Shown here piece by piece: positions 11,160-55,357 of a stretch of 64,000 bases of DNA. The translations under genes were made by a program, and so were the position numbers. The DNA lies in NCBI RefSeq assembly GCF_058153355.1, contig NZ_CM177019.1; one strand, 5' to 3'. Positions within the stretch are counted from its first letter, which is position 1, and each line of letters opens with the position of its first letter. The notes below the pieces were generated by a model. That model was not told where the DNA came from and searched no databases. It saw nothing but the letters and a program-made list of their open reading frames with translations.

Positions 11160-11297
11160 CGGGAAAGCCCCTCCCGAGGAAGGGGCCTTAAATAAGGAAA
11201 GGGTCATGATGAAGTGGATCATCATCGTGGTGCTCTTAGTCGTTAGCTACCCAGCTTACTAAGACTACCAGGGCGGGGGAAACCCCGCTCAACCCTC
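11160..11297 (-). ncRNA. sib: Predicted Sib-type antisense RNA (antitoxin) covering ibs copy 1; ends approximate
   Basis: Minus-strand promoter-like TTGACA (plus 11328-11333), 17-nt spacer, TATTTT (plus 11305-11310); minus-strand hairpin GCCCCTTCCTCGGGAGGGGC followed by a T-rich tract near 11165-11195 as terminator; transcript fully overlaps the ibs ORF. Confidence 0.45.
11206..11262 (+). CDS. ibs: Ibs-family type I toxin, 18 aa (MMKWIIIVVLLVVSYPAY), repeat copy 1
   Basis: Short hydrophobic ORF with an MMK start and PAY C-terminus, preceded by an AAGGAAAGGG Shine-Dalgarno-like sequence; matches the Ibs toxin pattern. Too short for the ORF track. Confidence 0.75.
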   Translation: MMKWIIIVVLLVVSYPAY

Positions 11298-11487
11298 ACT
11301 CCTGAAAATATGCCTTCACGGTCAGAATGTCAATCCGCAGGCTTTGCAGTCTGCGATCCTGCCAGCAAATATTCTTTGCGAGTCGTTACGCAATAATCAC
11401 AGATGAAACTATTTTATCTAAGCGTTAGCGATAGACTGCATTCAGGGCAAAAGGAGGTAGGCCGACGATTTCAGCGGGACGCTGAAA

Positions 11488-11625
11488 CGGGAAAGCCCCT
11501 CCCGAGGAAGGGGCCTTAAATAAGGAAAGGGTCATGATGAAGATACTCATCATCGTGGTGCTCTTAGTCATTAGCTTACCGGCTTACTAAGACTACCAGG
11601 GCGGGGGAAACCCCGCTCTACCCTC
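11488..11625 (-). ncRNA. sib: Predicted Sib-type antisense RNA covering ibs copy 2; ends approximate
   Basis: Same architecture as copy 1, shifted 328 bp; -10 element is TACTTT. Confidence 0.42.
11534..11590 (+). CDS. ibs: Ibs-family type I toxin, 18 aa (MMKILIIVVLLVISLPAY), repeat copy 2
   Basis: Same features as copy 1, exactly 328 bp downstream. Confidence 0.75.
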   Translation: MMKILIIVVLLVISLPAY

Positions 11626-11815
11626 ACTCCTGAAAGTATGCCTTCACAATCAGATTGTCAATCCGCAGGCTTTGTAGTCTGCGATCCTGCCAGCAAATAT
11701 TCTTTGCGAGACGTTACGCAATAATCACATGTGAAACTATTTTATCTGCAAGTTAGCGATAGACTGCTTGCATGGCGAAAGGAGGTAGGCCGCCGATTTC
11801 AGCGGGACGCTGAAA

Positions 11816-11953
11816 CGGGAAAGCCCCTCCCGAGGAAGGGGCCTTAAATAAGGAAAGGGTCATGATGAAGCTACTCATCATCGTGGTGCTCTTAGTTATT
11901 AGCTGGCCAGCTTACTAAGACTACCAGGGCGGGGGAAACCCCGCTCTACCCTC
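11816..11953 (-). ncRNA. sib: Predicted Sib-type antisense RNA covering ibs copy 3; ends approximate
   Basis: Same architecture; TTGACA retained, -10 degenerate (TAACTT), so expression is less certain. Confidence 0.38.
11862..11918 (+). CDS. ibs: Ibs-family type I toxin, 18 aa (MMKLLIIVVLLVISWPAY), repeat copy 3
   Basis: Same features as copy 1, 656 bp downstream. Confidence 0.75.
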   Translation: MMKLLIIVVLLVISWPAY

Positions 11954-12135
11954 ACTCCTGAAGTTATGTTACTCCACCCTTATTGTCAATCTGTAAGTCC
12001 ACGTTCTTGCGGGGCGAATAGCAAAACCCTCTGCGCTTATGGGCCGAATTCTGAAAGTTGCTTTGCCTGCTCTTATTTCATTATTGCAGTCGGTATGATA
12101 CCGGACCTCAATAATTCTCTAAGAAAGGATTTCTT

Positions 12136-25958: not shown

Positions 25959-27542
25959 TCACACCTCGTACTCCATCTCGCCATCCTTACGCAGCGGTAT
26001 AATCTGCACCTTCTGCACGCGATGGCTTTCCACCTGCAACGTTTTAAGCAAATAATCCCCCACCTGAACTTCTTCGCCAGGTTTTGGAATACGCTGTAAA
26101 TATTCCATCAACAGCCCGGCAATGGTGTGATATTCACGTTTTTCATCCAGCGGCAGCGGCACATATTGCACCAGATCTTCCAGCGGCATATGACCATTCG
26201 CCGTCCAGGAACCGTCCGCATTCTTCTGAATATCATGGCGGGCGTCGATCTCTTCCACTTCGTTCGGTAAGTTACCGGCAATGGTTTCAGTGACGTCACT
26301 TAATGTCACAATCCCTTCCACCGAGCCAAACTCATCCACCACAAAAGCAAAGTGTGTGCGGGCATTACGGAACTGCTCCAGGGCAGGTAACAACGGCAAG
26401 GTTTCCGGGAACACCAGCGGCTGGCGAATCAACACCCGCAGGTTGAGCGGTTCGCCACGCAGTGACTGTTGTAGCAGGTCGATAACGTGAACAACACCGA
26501 GCAAATCTTCTGCGTCATCACCGTCGGTAACCACCAGCCGCGTATGCTGATTTCGCTCCAGCAACTGGCGGATCTCGTCTTCCGGCGCGTTGAGATCGAT
26601 ATGCTCAATATCGTGGCGCGACGTCATAATGCTGCTGACAGTACGCTGGTTAAGATTAAGTACCCGCTCAATCATCCGCCGTTCCTGCGGATTAAAGATC
26701 TGCTGGTTACCATGATCCACCAGCATGGACGCGGTTTCGGCGTCCAGTTCCGCATCTTCTTTTTGCCCGCTAAGCAGGCGCATTACCGCTTCGGTAGTCC
26801 GCTGGCGTAGCGTCTGGTTAGCGGAAAGAAAACGTCGCCGGTTAAAGATAGCCAACTGATTGAGCGCCTCGATCATCACCGAGAAACCAATGGCAGCGTA
26901 CAGGTAGCCTTTCGGAATGATGAAGCCGAAACCTTCTGCCACCAGGCTAAAGCCAATCATCAACAGGAAGCTTAAGCAGAGAATAACGATGGTCGGGTGA
27001 CTGTTAACAAATTGCGTTAACGGCTTGCTGGCCATCAACATCAGGCTGATAGCGATAACCACGGCGGCCATCATGACCAGTAAATGGTCGACCATCCCGA
27101 CGGCGGTAATCACTGAGTCGAGTGAGAAGATGGCGTCCAGTACCACAATTTGTGTCACCACCCCCCAGAACTTCGCACCTTTGCGTTGTGTGGGATTATT
27201 GCTGTCTTTCCCTTCCAGCCGTTCGTTCAGCTCCATCGTGGCTTTGAACAACAGGAAGAAACCACCAAACAGCATGATTAAGTCGCGGGCGCTAAAGGTA
27301 AACGAGCGGAAGCTGAACAGCGGTTGCGTCAGGGTGACCAGCCAGGAGATTGACGCCAGCAGTAACAGGCGCATTAACATCGCCAGCAACAGCCCGGTAA
27401 CCCGTGCGCGGTCGCGCTGCTTCGGCGGTAGTTTTTCGGCGAGGATGGCAATAAAGACCAGGTTATCAATGCCGAGGACCAGTTCGATCACAATCAGCGT
27501 GATTAACCCGGCCCAGATAGACGGATCGGCAATCCATTCCAT
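25959..27542 (-). CDS. yegH: Inner-membrane TerC-like / CBS-domain / CorC-HlyC protein YegH (UPF0053 family)
   Basis: Start at the internal ATG 27540-27542 ([34 protein letters not shown], the TerC-type GIDN motif), giving 527 aa; hydrophobic N-terminal half, soluble C-terminal half. Confidence 0.85.
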
Positions 27543-27983
27543 AGTAAGTACAAAACCTATTCGTTGTATGACAAATGTCACAATTCGATCATGGATAAAT
27601 CGGGGCAAAAATGCAATGTTGCAGCACTATTTATCTCATATTATTTGAGGGTAATAACCTCACATTATCCCTGAATTAAAAGTGGTAATAATAAAACATT
27701 ATTTAAGAAATATCGCATGTGGAGGCGCAATATTAAATATTGTCAACCTAAAGAAACTCCTAAAAACCATATTGAATGACACTTAATATAATTCTTAAAA
27801 ATAGCCAATTGCCGAATTGTTACCTTGCCTGCTATTCCGTTAGCTGTAACACTTCCTCCTGCATTATTGGAGAGCCAATATTCAATTACCATAATGTCAC
27901 CTTATATTCGGAAGTTAATTTCCGCAATAACCCTTGCTCATCAACGATTGTATGCAGAGAGGGTTTGAAAAATTAAGCTAAAT

Positions 27984-28022
27984 CAGTGTGTTGGTAGCTA
28001 AAAAGCCAGGGGCGGTAGCGTG
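27984..28022 (+). promoter_or_regulatory. JUMPstart element with ops motif (GGCGGTAGCGTG) in the wza leader
   Basis: CAGTGTGTTGGTAGCTAAAAAGCCAGGGGCGGTAGCGTG, ~180 bp upstream of wza; ops sites recruit RfaH for antitermination of long polysaccharide operons. Confidence 0.78.
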
Positions 28023-28200
28023 TCTGGATGCCTGAAAGACCAGTCTGAATTATTCTGTCAATAGCCTGCGGATGAAATCAATTTTTTTAGGACTGATGCC
28101 AGTTAAATTTTTATTCAATTAACTGCAAGGTAAATGTGCATGGCGACATTGCTATTAATAGTGCACAGGATAATTACTCTGCCAAAGTGATAAATAAACA

Positions 28201-29340
28201 ATGATGAAATCCAAAATGAAATTGATGCCATTATTGGTGTCAGTAACCTTGATAAGCGGTTGCACAGTACTTCCGGGCAGCAATATGTCGACGATGGGGA
28301 AAGACGTCATCAAACAGCAGGACGCTGATTTCGATCTCGACAAAATGGTGAATGTTTATCCGCTGACCCCGCGCCTGATTGACCAATTACGCCCACGTCC
28401 GAATGTAGCGCGCCCTAATATGACGCTGGAAAGTGAGATCGCGAATTACCAGTATCGCGTCGGGCCGGGGGACGTTCTTAATGTCACCGTCTGGGATCAC
28501 CCGGAACTCACCACGCCAGCCGGTCAGTACCGCAGCTCCAGCGACACCGGCAACTGGGTACAGCCTGACGGCACCATGTTCTACCCGTATATCGGCAAGG
28601 TCCACGTCGTGGGGAAAACGCTCGCTGAAATCCGCAGTGATATTACCGGGCGCTTAGCGACGTACATCGCTGACCCGCAGGTGGACGTTAATATCGCCGC
28701 CTTCCGCTCGCAAAAAGCCTATATCTCCGGCCAGGTGAATAAATCCGGTCAACAGGCGATTACCAACGTACCACTGACCATTCTCGATGCCATCAACGCC
28801 GCAGGTGGCCTGACCGACACCGCTGACTGGCGCAACGTGGTGCTAACACACAATGGTCGTGAAGAGCGCATTTCTTTGCAGGCGCTGATGCAAAACGGCG
28901 ACCTCAACCAGAATCGCCTGCTTTACCCCGGCGATATTCTCTACGTGCCACGTAATGATGATCTGAAAGTATTTGTGATGGGTGAAGTGAAGAAACAGAG
29001 CACCCTGAAAATGGACTTTAGCGGCATGACCCTGACTGAAGCTCTGGGCAATGCCGAAGGTATCGACATGACCACCTCCAACGCCAGCGGCATCTTTGTC
29101 ATTCGTCCGCTGAAAGGCGAGGGCGGGCGTAACGGCAAGATTGCCAATATCTACCAGCTGGATATGTCCGATGCCACGTCGCTGGTGATGGCGACAGAAT
29201 TCCGCCTGCAACCTTATGACGTGGTGTATGTCACCACCGCCCCGGTTTCCCGCTGGAACCGTCTGATCAATCAGTTGCTGCCAACTATTAGCGGTGTCCG
29301 TTACATGACGGATACAGCCAGCGACATTCATAACTGGTAA
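28201..29340 (+). CDS. wza: Outer-membrane polysaccharide export lipoprotein Wza
   Basis: 379-aa ORF; lipoprotein signal with lipobox LISGC; first gene of the colanic acid operon. Confidence 0.95.
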
Positions 29341-40924: not shown

Positions 40925-42361
40925 ATGGCGCAGTCGAAACTCTATCCAGTTGTGATGGCAGGTGGCTCCGGTAGCCGCTTATGGCCGCTTTCCCGCGTAC
41001 TTTACCCCAAGCAGTTTTTATGCCTGAAAGGCGATCTCACCATGCTGCAAACCACCATCTGCCGCCTGAACGGCGTGGAGTGCGAAAGCCCGGTGGTGAT
41101 TTGCAATGAGCAGCACCGCTTTATTGTCGCGGAACAGCTGCGTCAACTGAACAAACTCACCGAGAACATTATTCTCGAACCGGCAGGGCGTAACACTGCA
41201 CCTGCCATTGCACTGGCGGCGCTGGCGGCAAAACGTCATAGCCCGGAGAGCGACCCGTTAATGCTGGTGCTGGCGGCGGATCATGTGATTGCCGATGAAG
41301 ACGCGTTCCGTGCCGCCGTGCGTAATGCCATGCCATATGCCGAAGCGGGCAAGCTGGTGACCTTTGGCATTGTGCCGGATCTACCAGAAACCGGTTATGG
41401 CTATATTCGTCGCGGTGAAGTGTCTGCGGGTGAGCAGGATACGGTGGCCTTTGAAGTGGCGCAGTTTGTCGAAAAACCGAATCTGGAAACCGCCCAGGCC
41501 TATGTGGCAAGTGGCGAATATTACTGGAACAGCGGCATGTTCCTGTTCCGCGCCGGACGCTATCTCGAAGAACTGAAAAAATATCGCCCGGATATTCTCG
41601 ATGCCTGTGAAAAAGCGATGAGCGCCGTCGATCCGGATCTTGATTTTATTCGTGTGGATGAAGAAGCGTTTCTCGCCTGCCCGGAAGAGTCGGTGGATTA
41701 CGCGGTCATGGAACGTACGGCAGATGCCGTTGTGGTACCGATGGATGCGGGCTGGAGCGATGTCGGCTCCTGGTCCTCATTATGGGAAATTAGCGCCCAC
41801 ACCGCCGAGGGCAACGTTTGCCACGGTGATGTGATTAATCACAAAACCGAAAACAGCTATGTGTATGCCGAATCTGGCCTGGTCACCACCGTCGGGGTGA
41901 AAGATCTGGTGGTGGTGCAGACCAAAGATGCGGTGCTGATTGCCGACCGTAACGCGGTACAGGATGTGAAAAAAGTAGTCGAGCAGATCAAAGCCGATGG
42001 TCGCCATGAGCATCGGGTACATCGCGAAGTCTATCGCCCGTGGGGCAAATATGACTCTATCGACGCGGGCGACCGCTACCAGGTGAAACGCATCACCGTG
42101 AAACCGGGCGAAGGCTTGTCGGTACAGATGCACCATCACCGCGCGGAACACTGGGTGGTGGTCGCGGGAACGGCAAAAGTCACTATTGACGGTGATATCA
42201 AACTGCTTGGTGAAAACGAGTCCATTTATATTCCGCTGGGGGCGACGCACTGCCTGGAAAACCCGGGGAAAATTCCGCTCGATTTAATTGAAGTGCGCTC
42301 CGGCTCTTATCTCGAAGAGGATGATGTGGTGCGCTTCGCGGATCGCTACGGACGGGTGTAA
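40925..42361 (+). CDS. cpsB: Mannose-1-phosphate guanylyltransferase (ManC)
   Basis: 478-aa ORF; N-terminal nucleotidyltransferase motif [12 protein letters not shown]; C-terminal cupin domain. Confidence 0.93.
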
Positions 42362-42470
<109 letters not shown>

Positions 42471-42553
42471 GCGAAACCGCGGTGTAAATAACGACAAAAA
42501 TAAAATTGGCCGCTTCGGTCAGGGCCAACTATTGCCTGAAAAAGGGTAACGAC

Positions 42554-46949: not shown

Positions 46950-47255
46950 TCCGACAACGGTTGCCGGGTGCAGCGTAAAACGCCTTATCCGTCCTACGGT
47001 TCTGTGCTCGGGACCTGTAGGCCTGATAAGACGCGTCAGCGTCGCATCAGGCACTGAATGCCGGATGCGGCGTGAACGCCTTATCCGTCCTACGGTTCTG
47101 TGCTCGGGACCTGTAGGCCTGATAAGACGCGTCAGCGTCGCATCAGGCACTGAATGCCGGATGCGGCGTGAACGCCTTATCCGGCCTACGGTTCTGTGCT
47201 CGGGTCTTGTAGGCCTGATAAGACGCGCCAGCGTCGCATCAGGCAAAAAGCGGCA
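46950..47255. repeat. Tandem array of three ~97-bp REP/BIME units
   Basis: The block GCCGGATGCGGCGTGAACGCCTTATCCG(T/G)CCTACGGTTCTGTGCTCGGG...GTAGGCCTGATAAGACGCG(T/C)CAGCGTCGCATCAGGCA recurs three times. Confidence 0.85.
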
Positions 47256-51365: not shown

Positions 51366-52361
51366 ATGAACGATAACGTTTTGCTCATAGGAGCTTCCGG
51401 ATTCGTAGGAACCCGACTACTTGAAACGGCAATTGCTGACTTTAATATCAAGAACCTGGACAAACAGCAGAGCCACTTTTATCCAGAAATCACACAGATT
51501 GGCGATGTTCGTGATCAACAGGCACTCGACCAGGCGTTAGCCGGTTTTGACACTGTTGTGCTACTGGCAGCGGAACACCGCGATGACGTCAGCCCTACTT
51601 CTCTCTATTATGATGTCAATGTTCAGGGTACCCGCAATGTGCTGGCGGCCATGGAAAAAAATGGCGTTAAAAATATCATCTTTACCAGTTCCGTTGCTGT
51701 TTATGGTTTGAACAAACACAACCCTGACGAAAACCATCCACACGACCCTTTCAACCACTACGGCAAAAGTAAGTGGCAGGCAGAGGAAGTGCTGCGTGAA
51801 TGGTATAACAAAGCACCAACAGAACGTTCATTAACCATCATCCGTCCTACCGTTATCTTCGGTGAACGCAACCGCGGTAACGTCTATAACTTGCTGAAAC
51901 AGATCGCTGGCGGCAAGTTTATGATGGTGGGCGCAGGGACTAACTATAAGTCCATGGCTTATGTTGGAAACATTGTTGAGTTTATCAAGTACAAACTGAA
52001 GAATGTTGCCGCAGGTTATGAGGTTTATAACTACGTTGATAAGCCAGACCTGAACATGAACCAGTTGGTTGCTGAAGTTGAACAAAGCCTGAACAAAAAG
52101 ATCCCTTCTATGCACTTGCCTTACCCACTAGGAATGCTGGGTGGATATTGCTTTGATATCCTGAGCAAAATTACGGGCAAAAAATACGCTGTCAGCTCAG
52201 TGCGCGTGAAAAAATTCTGCGCAACAACACAGTTTGACGCAACGAAAGTGCATTCTTCAGGTTTTGTGGCACCGTATACGCTGTCGCAAGGTCTGGATCG
52301 AACTCTGCAGTATGAATTCGTCCATGCCAAAAAAGACGACATAACGTTTGTTTCTGAGTAA
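51366..52361 (+). CDS. gne: NAD-dependent sugar nucleotide epimerase, probably UDP-GlcNAc 4-epimerase (Gne-like)
   Basis: 331-aa ORF; Rossmann motif LIGASGFVG; sits between wcaM and galF, where gne lies in several E. coli serogroups with GalNAc-containing O antigens. Family call is solid; substrate is inferred. Confidence 0.6.
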   Translation: MNDNVLLIGASGFVGTRLLETAIADFNIKNLDKQQSHFYPEITQIGDVRDQQALDQALAGFDTVVLLAAEHRDDVSPTSLYYDVNVQGTRNVLAAMEKNGVKNIIFTSSVAVYGLNKHNPDENHPHDPFNHYGKSKWQAEEVLREWYNKAPTERSLTIIRPTVIFGERNRGNVYNLLKQIAGGKFMMVGAGTNYKSMAYVGNIVEFIKYKLKNVAAGYEVYNYVDKPDLNMNQLVAEVEQSLNKKIPSMHLPYPLGMLGGYCFDILSKITGKKYAVSSVRVKKFCATTQFDATKVHSSGFVAPYTLSQGLDRTLQYEFVHAKKDDITFVSE

Positions 52362-52603
52362 TGCAGGCGAGTCAGAGAAAAAAGGACCAGGTTGGACTAC
52401 GATTATTCGGAAAGAGGTACTGATTAAATTATCAGTATGTGGATTTCCGAGTAATCCGAGTAACCCAGATGCTGATGGTGTGTAGTGTTATCGTAAGGTT
52501 TAATCAAAGTTATGCGGAACTAAGCTTTGCTATATAGCCATAACGCTTGGCTAACCTATGGCAATAATTTACGCACTATCAGCCACTTAGAGGTAGGAAA
52601 ATA

Positions 52604-53497
52604 ATGACGAATTTAAAAGCAGTTATACCGGTAGCAGGTCTTGGGATGCATATGTTGCCTGCCACTAAGGCGATTCCCAAAGAGATGCTACCGATCGTCG
52701 ACAAGCCAATGATTCAGTACATTGTTGACGAGATTGTGGCTGCAGGGATCAAAGAAATCCTCCTGGTAACTCACGCGTCCAAGAACGCGGTCGAAAACCA
52801 CTTCGACACCTCTTATGAATTAGAATCTCTCCTTGAGCAGCGCGTGAAGCGTCAACTGTTGGCGGAAGTACAATCTATCTGTCCGCCGGGCGTGACCATT
52901 ATGAACGTGCGTCAGGGTGAACCTTTAGGTTTAGGCCACTCCATCTTATGTGCGCGACCTGCCATTGGTGACAACCCATTTATCGTGGTACTGCCAGACG
53001 TAGTGATCGACGACGCCAGCGCCGACCCGCTGCGCTACAACCTTGCTGCCATGATTGCGCGCTTCAACGAAACGGGCCGTAGCCAGGTGCTGGCAAAACG
53101 TATGCCGGGTGACCTCTCTGAATACTCCGTCATCCAGACCAAAGAACCGCTGGACCGTGAAGGTAAAGTCAGCCGCATTGTTGAATTTATCGAAAAACCG
53201 GATCAGCCGCAGACGCTGGACTCAGACATCATGGCCGTAGGTCGCTATGTGCTTTCTGCCGATATTTGGCCGGAACTAGAACGCACTCAGCCTGGTGCAT
53301 GGGGGCGTATTCAGCTGACTGATGCTATTGCCGAACTGGCGAAAAAACAGTCCGTTGATGCCATGCTGATGACTGGAGACAGCTACGACTGCGGTAAAAA
53401 AATGGGCTATATGCAGGCGTTTGTGAAGTACGGACTGCGTAACCTGAAAGAAGGGGCGAAGTTCCGCAAAGGTATTGAGAGGTTGTTGAATGATTAA
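52604..53497 (+). CDS. galF: UTP-glucose-1-phosphate uridylyltransferase regulatory paralog GalF
   Basis: 297-aa ORF; nucleotidyltransferase N-terminus [26 protein letters not shown]; canonical 5' flank of the O-antigen locus. Confidence 0.92.
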
Positions 53498-53746
53498 AAA
53501 CATGAACAAATATAACGGTAAATAAGAGAAATTGTAACGGCAGTGAGGATTTGCGGCGAAGCTCAAACGTGGCGAATATCCCTGTCGTTATTTATTAATA
53601 AATCATCGTACTAACAATGGAATAAAAAAGTGCCTTGTTTTAAGTTTTACAGGATATTCCTTGTTTCTGGAGGAGATTGATAAGACAATCAGCATCTGAA
53701 TTTATCAGAACTTGTGTGTCTTGCTGATTACATTGTTATATTCATG

Positions 53747-53785
53747 TAGTGTACTGGTAGCTGTGGAGCCAGGGGCGGTAGCGTG
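53747..53785 (+). promoter_or_regulatory. JUMPstart element with ops motif (GGCGGTAGCGTG at 53774-53785) heading the O-antigen cluster
   Basis: TAGTGTACTGGTAGCTGTGGAGCCAGGGGCGGTAGCGTG, ~60 bp upstream of wzx; near-identical core to the copy upstream of wza. Confidence 0.78.
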
Positions 53786-53842
53786 CATTAATATTCACAA
53801 TATATTCTTTTAAATGTAAGCAGAATTAATCGAACCTAAATA

Positions 53843-55357
53843 ATGTCACGTAACAAAATAATCATAAAGAATACTATGTTTTTGGCAACAAGAACCTTAG
53901 TTTCTTTAAGTGTTTCATTTTACACAACAAGAATAGTTATACAACAGTTGGGGGCGGCAGACTATGGCTTATTTAATATCATTTATGGAGTTGTAACATT
54001 TTTTACATTCGTAGTCACCGCGATGAATGATTCTGTACAGCGTTATATTGCAATAGGTGTTGGTTCACAAAAAATATCGGTTATTAGAGATGCTGTAAAA
54101 AATAGTATGTTTATATTTGTTATATCTGCTTTCATATTGGCAGTATGTCTTCTTTTGGCAAGGGGGGTGATCATACATAATATTTTAAATATACCTAAAG
54201 ATTCTATTGAAAATGCAAGTGTGTTATATTTGGTTGCAGTATTTTCAATAACCATACTTATAATTCAGACGCCACTTAATGCGATGGTGTTAGCATACGA
54301 GAAAATGTCATTTTACGCATACATGATGATATTTGAAATGGTAGCTAAAATGAGTATGGCTTTGTTACTAACTTTACTGGAAAAAGATAAGGTCATTGTA
54401 TATTCAATACTTTTAGGTTCTATTTCTTTTTTTAACTTGTTGGTTTATTTATGCTACTGCTTGATATGTTTTAAAAAATCAATGTTTGGTGGGAGAATAA
54501 AATTTAGAGTGCTGAAAGAAATTTCAACTTTTTCATTTTGGAATATATTTGGTAATTTCTCTTACATGTGCAGAGTTCAGGGAGTGAACATTGTAATTAA
54601 TATGTTTTACGCTATAGCCGTGAATGCAGCATATGCGATTTCGATTACTGTTTTAAATGCAATTAATACACTTACGCAATCATTAATTACAGCATTAAGG
54701 CCTCAAATATTTAAATCATATGGCGAATGTGATTTAAAAAGATATAATCATCTAGTTCTCTTTGGTTCAAAATATACATTTTCAATATTGTTTCTGTTAA
54801 GTAGCCCTGTAATTCTATGTGCGGATGAGTTGTTAAAGATATGGCTTGATATTGTACCAGATTATACAGTTGAATTTGTGAGGTTGGTCATTGTTGTGGC
54901 TTTTATTGATAGTTTTTCATATAGCATGATTGCTGGTATTCAGGCTACGGGTAGGATTAAAACATATCAACTAGTTGTTAGTTTAATTGTCCTAATTAAT
55001 TTGCCGTTAACCTTTATTTTGTTTAAGGCAGGAAATAATGTTTTAAGTATGTTTTATCCATTTATTGTTACTGCCATTATCAATCAAGGTTTAAGGTTGT
55101 ATTTTATCTATATCAATGCAGGTTTTGATTATAAGAAGTATTTCACTGTTGTGATCTATCCTTGCTTGTTAGCTGTATGCTTATCGTTAGTGACAGATAT
55201 TTCAATTAAAAAAATGCTTCCATTTAACAGTGTTATTGATGTTTTAATTGTGTGTATTTTTATTTTTTCATTCAATACAATAATTTTTTATTGGGTTGTA
55301 GTTTCTAAAAAGGAAAAAAAATGGTTATTAGAAACCCTGAAAAGAAAAGTGAAATAA
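53843..55357 (+). CDS. wzx: O-antigen flippase Wzx (polysaccharide biosynthesis / MOP family)
   Basis: 504-aa AT-rich ORF, almost entirely hydrophobic with ~12 predicted TM helices; first gene after galF and JUMPstart. Confidence 0.7.
   Translation: MSRNKIIIKNTMFLATRTLVSLSVSFYTTRIVIQQLGAADYGLFNIIYGVVTFFTFVVTAMNDSVQRYIAIGVGSQKISVIRDAVKNSMFIFVISAFILAVCLLLARGVIIHNILNIPKDSIENASVLYLVAVFSITILIIQTPLNAMVLAYEKMSFYAYMMIFEMVAKMSMALLLTLLEKDKVIVYSILLGSISFFNLLVYLCYCLICFKKSMFGGRIKFRVLKEISTFSFWNIFGNFSYMCRVQGVNIVINMFYAIAVNAAYAISITVLNAINTLTQSLITALRPQIFKSYGECDLKRYNHLVLFGSKYTFSILFLLSSPVILCADELLKIWLDIVPDYTVEFVRLVIVVAFIDSFSYSMIAGIQATGRIKTYQLVVSLIVLINLPLTFILFKAGNNVLSMFYPFIVTAIINQGLRLYFIYINAGFDYKKYFTVVIYPCLLAVCLSLVTDISIKKMLPFNSVIDVLIVCIFIFSFNTIIFYWVVVSKKEKKWLLETLKRKVK

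Follow-up and report, generated by a model that had tools for sequence, protein, structure and literature searches.

The stretch of DNA analysed here, called the window, is 64,000 nucleotides long, and its positions 27543–28200 are the control region, well studied before, of wza-wcaM, the colanic-acid (slime capsule) operon of E. coli. The region separates wza from its divergent neighbour, yegH. Both genes were identified from the list of open reading frames and from RefSeq annotation, that of yegH being available in K-12 and in a strain whose spacer is 100% identical.

25959–27542, minus strand: yegH, encoding a TerC-family membrane protein, the divergent neighbour
27543–28200: yegH–wza intergenic control region, 658 bp, AT-rich
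28201–29340, plus strand: wza, 379 aa, gene 1 of the colanic acid operon

The yegH start codon (minus strand) occupies 27542–27540 and the wza ATG begins at 28201, with 658 bp between them. The GC content of this spacer is 0.30–0.41, as against 0.50–0.60 in the genes on either side, and the initial annotation of an AT-rich gap of about 660 bp between divergent genes is thus borne out. Of 5426 complete E. coli genomes, 4818 contain the spacer at a coverage of at least 80%. Its identity is 100% with strain MEI005 and 97.9% with K-12, from which it differs by 14 SNPs. All but one of these fall in variable spacers; the exception (27990) lies within the JUMPstart element, in its variable part. The four Rcs-type boxes (S0–S3), the TGTCAA motif, the core promoter and the ops element, all described below, are identical in MG1655. 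For annotation, the coordinates of the elements are fixed both for this strain and for MG1655, where the coordinate is 2165444 minus the window position. An open reading frame of 49 aa within the spacer (27743–27892, minus strand), called a 'hypothetical protein' by PGAP, was rejected as a spurious annotation, since a stop codon interrupts it in K-12 and only 2 of 76 species have it intact. It overlaps S2, S3 and the promoter.

The downstream half of the spacer carries a JUMPstart element with its ops motif, and a second copy lies further along the window.

27984–28022, plus strand: JUMPstart, 39 bp, Rfam RF01707; identity to the window averages 0.87 over 76 species
28011–28022, plus strand (the non-template strand, same strand as wza): ops, GGCGGTAGCGTG, 190 nt before the wza ATG
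53747–53785, plus strand: second JUMPstart, RF01707, 54.7 bits, with ops at 53774–53785, between galF and wzx

The coordinates given earlier for the first element are exactly those returned by the Rfam model: the match at 27984–28022 on the plus strand scores 53.8 bits (E=1.6e-9; gathering score 35) and covers model positions 1–38 of 38, that is, the full length. The exact ops sequence, GGCGGTAGNNTG, was found at two places in the 64 kb, 28011–28022 and 53774–53785, both on the plus strand. The two ops elements reported before are thus the only exact matches, where 0.11 would be expected by chance per window, and none of 100 shuffles yielded two. The ops core, GGCGGTAGnnTG, lies on the coding-sense strand of the downstream operon. 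The second JUMPstart is flanked by galF (52604–53497) and by a wzx of the O124/O164 O-antigen family (53843–55357), and galF–JUMPstart–wzx is the order with which O-antigen clusters usually begin. When wza orthologues with 3-kb flanks were taken from 80 Enterobacteriaceae species, about 75 of them had GGCGGTAG at 186–199 nt ahead of the wza start codon. In the alignment of 76 species, the ops 12-mer is 98% conserved.

The proposal that both polysaccharide operons are under RfaH control agrees with published ChIP data from strain CFT073 (PMC9765446, Hustmyer et al. 2022). There, GGCGGTAGCGTG lies at -190 of wza and carries an RfaH signal in an hns stpA double mutant, while in the wild type, H-NS lies over the wza promoter and RfaH is found on the O-antigen (wzx) ops. 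According to the same study, RfaH loading at wza is cryptic unless initiation is de-silenced. PMC9976346 also describes the colanic operon as activated by RcsA/RcsB and, with reference to Stout 1996 and Hobbs and Reeves 1994, as subject to JUMPstart-RfaH antitermination. The RfaH inference for both operons is supported by the ChIP data and these earlier descriptions, but it is not new.

The position of the wza promoter was approached with a position weight matrix for sigma-70, which was run over the plus strand of 76 orthologous regions.

27825–27853, plus strand: putative core sigma-70 promoter of wza, with -35 TTGCCT at 27825–27830, a 17-bp spacer and an extended -10, TGtAACACT, at 27845–53
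27859–27861, plus strand: transcription start deduced from the position of the -10

A promoter whose -10 ends at the equivalent of window positions 27850–27854 is among the top three in 74 of the 76 species and is the top one in the window itself. In the wza promoter block (27824–53), the identity of the -35 is 0.97 and the majority-base frequency of the -10 is 0.96. A simple consensus scan missed TTGCCT-17-TGtAACACT because only 7 of its 12 hexamer positions match. The sole promoter match of that scan, TGGAGA-16-CATAAT (27868–95), is not conserved, and neither is a perfect TATAAT at 27787–92, inside S3. Both were set aside as the wza promoter and the wza -10, respectively, and are regarded as minor alternatives.

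The -10 at 27845–53 implies a start near 27860, which would place the Rcs boxes upstream of the promoter and leave a leader of only about 341 nt. The promoter found in 74 of the 76 species therefore speaks against the earlier description of the whole ~660 bp as leader. Relative to this putative start, JUMPstart would lie at about +125 and ops at about +152, downstream of the promoter and ahead of wza, and the element would thus be transcribed as part of the leader. Reporter constructs that carry the segment from JUMPstart to the ATG alone would omit the conserved promoter as well as all the Rcs boxes.

Within the leader, the blocks at 28048–66, 28085–110 and 28160–200 are 80–100% conserved, and the last of these adjoins the start codon.

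28160–28200, plus strand: translation-initiation region, ending in ctctgccaaagtgataaataaacaATG; identity 0.87 over 76 species; without a Shine-Dalgarno sequence

A GGAG-like motif is absent from the sequence 5–10 nt ahead of the wza ATG, and the alignments show that this pre-ATG sequence is nearly invariant between genera. A role of the leader through RNA structure was considered and rejected. The only structures returned by RNAalifold on 24 genera were the small hairpins of JUMPstart; compensatory pairs numbered 0, no covarying structure was found, and the JUMPstart RNA folds no more stably than its shuffles (z = 0.28). That this RNA is not unusually stable fits with ops acting at the level of DNA, through the non-template strand. 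As for the missing Shine-Dalgarno sequence, Burmann and colleagues are said to have reported in 2012 that RfaH can couple ribosomes to messages of this kind.

The upstream half of the spacer was studied through a conservation footprint, for which 76 orthologous upstream regions were aligned with ops as the anchor. These 76 species share kinship, and the conservation counts are thus not independent events. The spacer resolves into discrete conserved blocks, with a mean identity to the window of 0.72–0.98 (0.57 for S0), between spacers at 0.32–0.44. Ahead of the promoter, the blocks are the following.

27625–27638, plus strand: S0, CACTATTTATCTCA, a decayed RcsAB-type box in E. coli, centred at about -229 from the deduced start
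27704–27717, plus strand: S1, TAAGAAATATCGCA, candidate RcsAB box, 484–497 bp upstream of the wza ATG, centred at about -150
27741–27746, plus strand: TGTCAA motif, invariant, 98% identity over 76 species
27749–27766, plus strand: S2, TAAAGAAACTCCTA (box 27749–27762), with an A-tract, RcsAB-type, at about -105
27784–27801, plus strand: S3, TAATATAATTCTTA (box 27784–27797), with an A-tract, RcsAB-type, at about -70

S1 is the RcsAB-like sequence reported before at about 500 bp from wza, and it is indeed present at that place. The RcsAB consensus, TaAGaatatTCctA, is quoted in PMC4325325 and PMC3950696. S1 agrees with it at 9 of 14 positions. All six capitalised positions (T1, A/G3, G4, T10, C11, A14) are among these, and no other sequence in the spacer matches all six. 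The match is thus partial, as had been said, but slightly better than described. The scan of the spacer for the full consensus found nothing within 3 mismatches.

Could such a match be a chance resemblance in AT-rich DNA, without any Rcs function? The window contains 29 copies of the six-position pattern, TNRGN5TCNNA, where 50 are expected, and about 0.45 chance matches are expected per upstream region of ~470 bp. At 9/14, S1 is also surpassed on the full consensus by three other 14-mers of the spacer, all at 10/14: S2 and another site, the latter counted once per strand. The pattern match of S1 alone is no better than chance, and bare consensus scanning is uninformative as evidence for RcsAB. 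It is the conservation across species, and not the pattern match, that marks S1 as more than chance. Its block has an identity of 0.72 over 76 species, whereas the spacers on either side have 0.34–0.36. All seven Rcs key positions are present in 50 of 76 species, and T-N-R-G-N5-T-C-N-N-A is kept at the aligned position in 50 of 75. Most genera read TAGGAwATATCGCA, the substitutions across species are confined to the allowed set TAAGA, TAGGA and TCGGA, and at the equivalent position in Atlantibacter, TGAGGATATTCCTA matches the consensus at 12 of 14 positions. S1 is also free of the SNPs that separate the spacer from that of K-12. A chance origin is thus improbable. Another explanation for the same conservation is that S1 is kept for the sake of divergent yegH, providing the -10 of a promoter on the minus strand whose -35 would be TTGACA, the complement of 27741–46. 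In 30 of 76 species, the top three predictions include a minus-strand promoter whose -10 ends at about 27715–27719; in Enterobacter, it reads TTGACA-17-ATATAT. In E. coli, however, about 26 bp separate TTGACA from the core of S1 and no -10 fits. The S1 positions outside the -10 hexamer (T1, G4, A5, C11, A14) are equally conserved, and the start of yegH is at least 160 bp further on. A yegH promoter is therefore an unlikely reason for the conservation of S1, and the search for promoters over the 76 species found no consistent one that accounts for TGTCAA. On balance, the evidence tilts slightly towards S1 being a functional Rcs site. As the RcsAB site of this region, it is upheld by its conservation in 50 of 75 species, but it is not the single candidate, since at least two more conserved boxes, S2 and S3, are present.

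The mapped operator may indeed be one of these. S2, possibly together with S3, has a nearly even chance of being the functional RcsAB operator mapped at wza (Wehland and Bernhard 2000), in which case S1 would be auxiliary or weak. S2 is the most universally conserved of the boxes: over 76 species, T1 is found in 76, each position of TCCTA in 71–74, and T10, C11 and A14 in 74 each. In the most distant genera, it takes the canonical form without a shift of register, namely TGAGGATAATCCTA in Franconibacter, TGAGGCTAATCCTA in Atlantibacter, and TCAGGTTAATCCTA, whereas S1 is lost in about one-third of the species. Its distance of about -105 from the deduced start fits the cps RcsAB box, which we take to lie roughly 100 bp upstream, and S2 followed by its A-tract resembles a box of the rcsA promoter, TAAGGATTATCCGAAAAA. 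Against this, S2 has a degenerate left half in E. coli, with A in place of G4 (a G is found there in 13 of the 76 species) and 5 of 7 key positions. It is S1, and not S2, that matches all the capitalised positions, and S1 is the only E. coli box with two half-sites of the kind contacted by RcsB, TAAGA and, on the complement, TGCGA. In crystal structures, RcsB contacts the G and A of the half-sites TTAGGAA and TCTAAGA (PMC5829831). That S1 is the experimentally mapped box is possible, though somewhat short of an even chance. Roughly, then, the expectation for the mapped box is shared between S2, at close to even, and S1, a little below, with the remainder going to S3. A full-text search of the open literature with the 14-mers of S1 and S2 gave irrelevant matches only, and a search for the wza promoter, RcsAB and the start site found no paper giving coordinates.

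Whichever of them is the mapped box, the other boxes also bear the marks of Rcs sites. In E. coli, S0, S2 and S3 each have one perfect RcsB-type half. The right halves of S2 and S3 match the RcsB contact half-sites of PMC5829831, and these half-sites (TCCTA and TCTTA) are 93–100% conserved, position by position, in about 75 species; for TCTTA of S3, the count is 71–74 of 74 species per position. Both boxes match the consensus at 10 of 14 positions, but G4 is absent in most species, and another cause of their conservation could therefore apply. From their parallels with the boxes of the rcsA promoter, S2 and S3 are nevertheless credible as Rcs boxes too. S0, with all seven key positions in 23 of 76 species, is strong and near-palindromic in Enterobacter, Lelliottia, Trabulsiella and others, where it reads TGAGATTTCTCTTA or TGAGATTAATCTTA. 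The latter variant is rarer, being found in 2 species, and its reverse complement, TAAGATTAATCTCA, is identical at 13 of 14 positions (one base off) to the RcsAB box of K. pneumoniae galF, TAAGATTATTCTCA (PMC3438125).

It can be suggested, tentatively and with the odds rather against it, that the wza promoter carries an evolutionarily fluid array of three to four Rcs boxes, at about -70, -105, -150 and -229, instead of a single operator. The individual boxes would strengthen or decay by genus, while the half-sites of S2 and S3 persist. If such an array exists, it would point to cooperative or oligomeric binding of RcsAB that displaces H-NS. Under the same reading, additional, undescribed inputs would be suggested by TGTCAA and by the strong conservation of a start region that lacks a Shine-Dalgarno sequence. 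The multi-box footprint is a modest refinement of the Rcs activation of capsule genes. The reading from which this work set out is essentially right yet incomplete, as S1 is one of several Rcs-type boxes and is outside the leader.

Taken together, the elements very probably serve a control in two stages: initiation driven by the Rcs boxes over H-NS silencing, followed by elongation through wza-wcaM under JUMPstart/ops-RfaH. The system as such is known. The promoter, its dependence on RcsAB and the leader with JUMPstart/ops-RfaH have been in the literature since the 1990s, and the occupancy by RfaH has been seen by ChIP. The present contribution consists of the elements with their coordinates and conservation. 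In the proposed scheme, the AT-rich upstream half (about 27600–27860) would be silenced by H-NS, as the literature indicates, and would present an array of RcsAB/RcsB-type boxes before a weak sigma-70 promoter, both the promoter and its start being placed by prediction. S1, S2 and S3 are all upstream of this putative promoter, and the Rcs activation of the operon is taken from the literature. Once the Rcs phosphorelay is active and RcsA is stable, the boxes would be bound by RcsA-RcsB~P, the occupancy of each of them being part of the model, so that H-NS is overcome and initiation is activated. About 150 nt into the ~341-nt leader, JUMPstart would be transcribed, and the non-template ops would pause RNA polymerase and load RfaH, for whose occupancy we rely on the published work. 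RfaH would then suppress termination that depends on Rho and H-NS over the 23 kb of the operon. In the model, it probably also aids the recruitment of ribosomes at the wza start, which is devoid of a Shine-Dalgarno sequence.

The closest known system is the cps/wza promoter region of E. coli K-12 (Stout 1996; Wehland and Bernhard 2000, as cited in PMC9976346 and PMC2478693). The locus is the same, and the spacer measures 658 bp in either strain. The O-antigen cluster differs, being of the O124/O164 type in this strain and O16 in K-12. The leader resembles those of other JUMPstart/ops-RfaH operons (rfb/O-antigen, rfa/waaQ, hly and kps), where, as at wza, the leader of a long operon for surface polysaccharides contains, on the non-template strand, a 39-bp JUMPstart ending in GGCGGTAGCGTG. 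The distance from ops to the first gene is 190 nt at wza, in contrast to about 70 nt at the O-antigen ops (in this window; -71 in CFT073).

In the upstream half, the likeness is to the promoter of rcsA. This gene is autoregulated via two RcsAB boxes, box1 and box2, which lie in AT-rich DNA bound by H-NS, some 170 bp ahead of the start (PMC11879457). The region of these boxes in MG1655 reads ...TGAATTGCCATTAATATAATTCCGTAACG...CCTAAGGATTATCCGAAAAA..., and the 12-mer TTAATATAATTC is common to S3 and the box1 region. It is the longest word shared, and a word of such length is reached in 9 of 500 shuffles. Both promoters thus have two RcsAB-type boxes, about 33–35 bp apart and far upstream, in AT-rich, H-NS-bound DNA, and S2 followed by AAAA is the counterpart of the rcsA box named above. 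The order of the box types, however, is reversed at wza, which adds S1 and the decayed S0 further upstream. A similar pairing of modules is found in the cps locus of K. pneumoniae (PMC3438125), where promoter P1, of galF, has an RcsAB box and promoter P2, of wzi, has a JUMPstart, the former module serving initiation and the latter RfaH-dependent elongation. In Klebsiella, the two modules are at two separate promoters, whereas at wza both are on one transcription unit.

One published ‘wza promoter’-lacZ fusion has primers equivalent to positions 28000-28198 of the window, i.e., only the leader from JUMPstart to the ATG; this fusion showed no response to regulation (PMC11112850). As judged from the primer positions, it contains neither the conserved core promoter nor any Rcs box identified here, and the lack of these elements may be the reason for its unresponsiveness.

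Upstream of the fused segment lies an annotated reading frame:

27743-27892, minus strand: 49-aa ‘hypothetical protein’, annotated in many RefSeq E. coli genomes

It overlaps the conserved candidate Rcs boxes and the promoter. The gene call is spurious: the frame is interrupted by a stop codon in K-12 and intact in only two of the 76 species.

Several other conserved motifs are present in the yegH-wza spacer. Directly 5' of the candidate box S2 lies an invariant TGTCAA (27741-27746; 98% identity across the 76 species), and the conserved TGTCAAT recurs at 28054-28060 in the transcribed leader. Neither a known factor nor a consistent promoter accounts for these motifs. Despite having no Shine-Dalgarno sequence, the translation-initiation region of wza (28160-28215; …CTCTGCCAAAGTGATAAATAATCAATGATGAAATCC) is near-invariant from genus to genus, and the cross-genus alignment gave no covarying RNA structure there. 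At the other end of the spacer, the conserved blocks at 27569-27620, namely the palindrome TGACAAATGTCA, GATCATGGATAA and AAAATGCAAT, adjoin the yegH start and are common to several genera. Presumably, these are promoter or operator elements of yegH.

RNA elements in the window matched by Rfam

11191-11333, minus strand: SIB RNA, full-length
11519-11661, minus strand: SIB RNA, full-length
11847-11989, minus strand: SIB RNA, full-length
42500-42549, plus strand: algC RNA motif, 76.6 bits
47020-47090, minus strand: naRNA4
47116-47186, minus strand: naRNA4

The three tandem SIB copies (136-140 bits each) represent the Sib antitoxin sRNA of the Ibs/Sib type I toxin-antitoxin. The algC motif is inside the wca operon, flanked by the cpsB/manC ORF (40925-42361) and the cpsG/manB ORF, and is therefore directly upstream of the phosphomannomutase gene. 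naRNA4 is a REP-derived nucleoid-associated RNA; the pair is apparently a REP/BIME cluster, either within the wca genes or after them.

The O-antigen cluster 3' of galF opens with an O124/O164-family wzx flippase (53843-55357). The strain is of an uncommon O-type, since only 5 of the 5426 complete genomes carry at least 80% of 52300-55300. In the spacer directly upstream of galF lies a match to the Rcs pattern, TCGGATTACTCGGA (52446-52459, minus strand). This candidate site is reminiscent of the RcsAB box that Klebsiella has upstream of galF.
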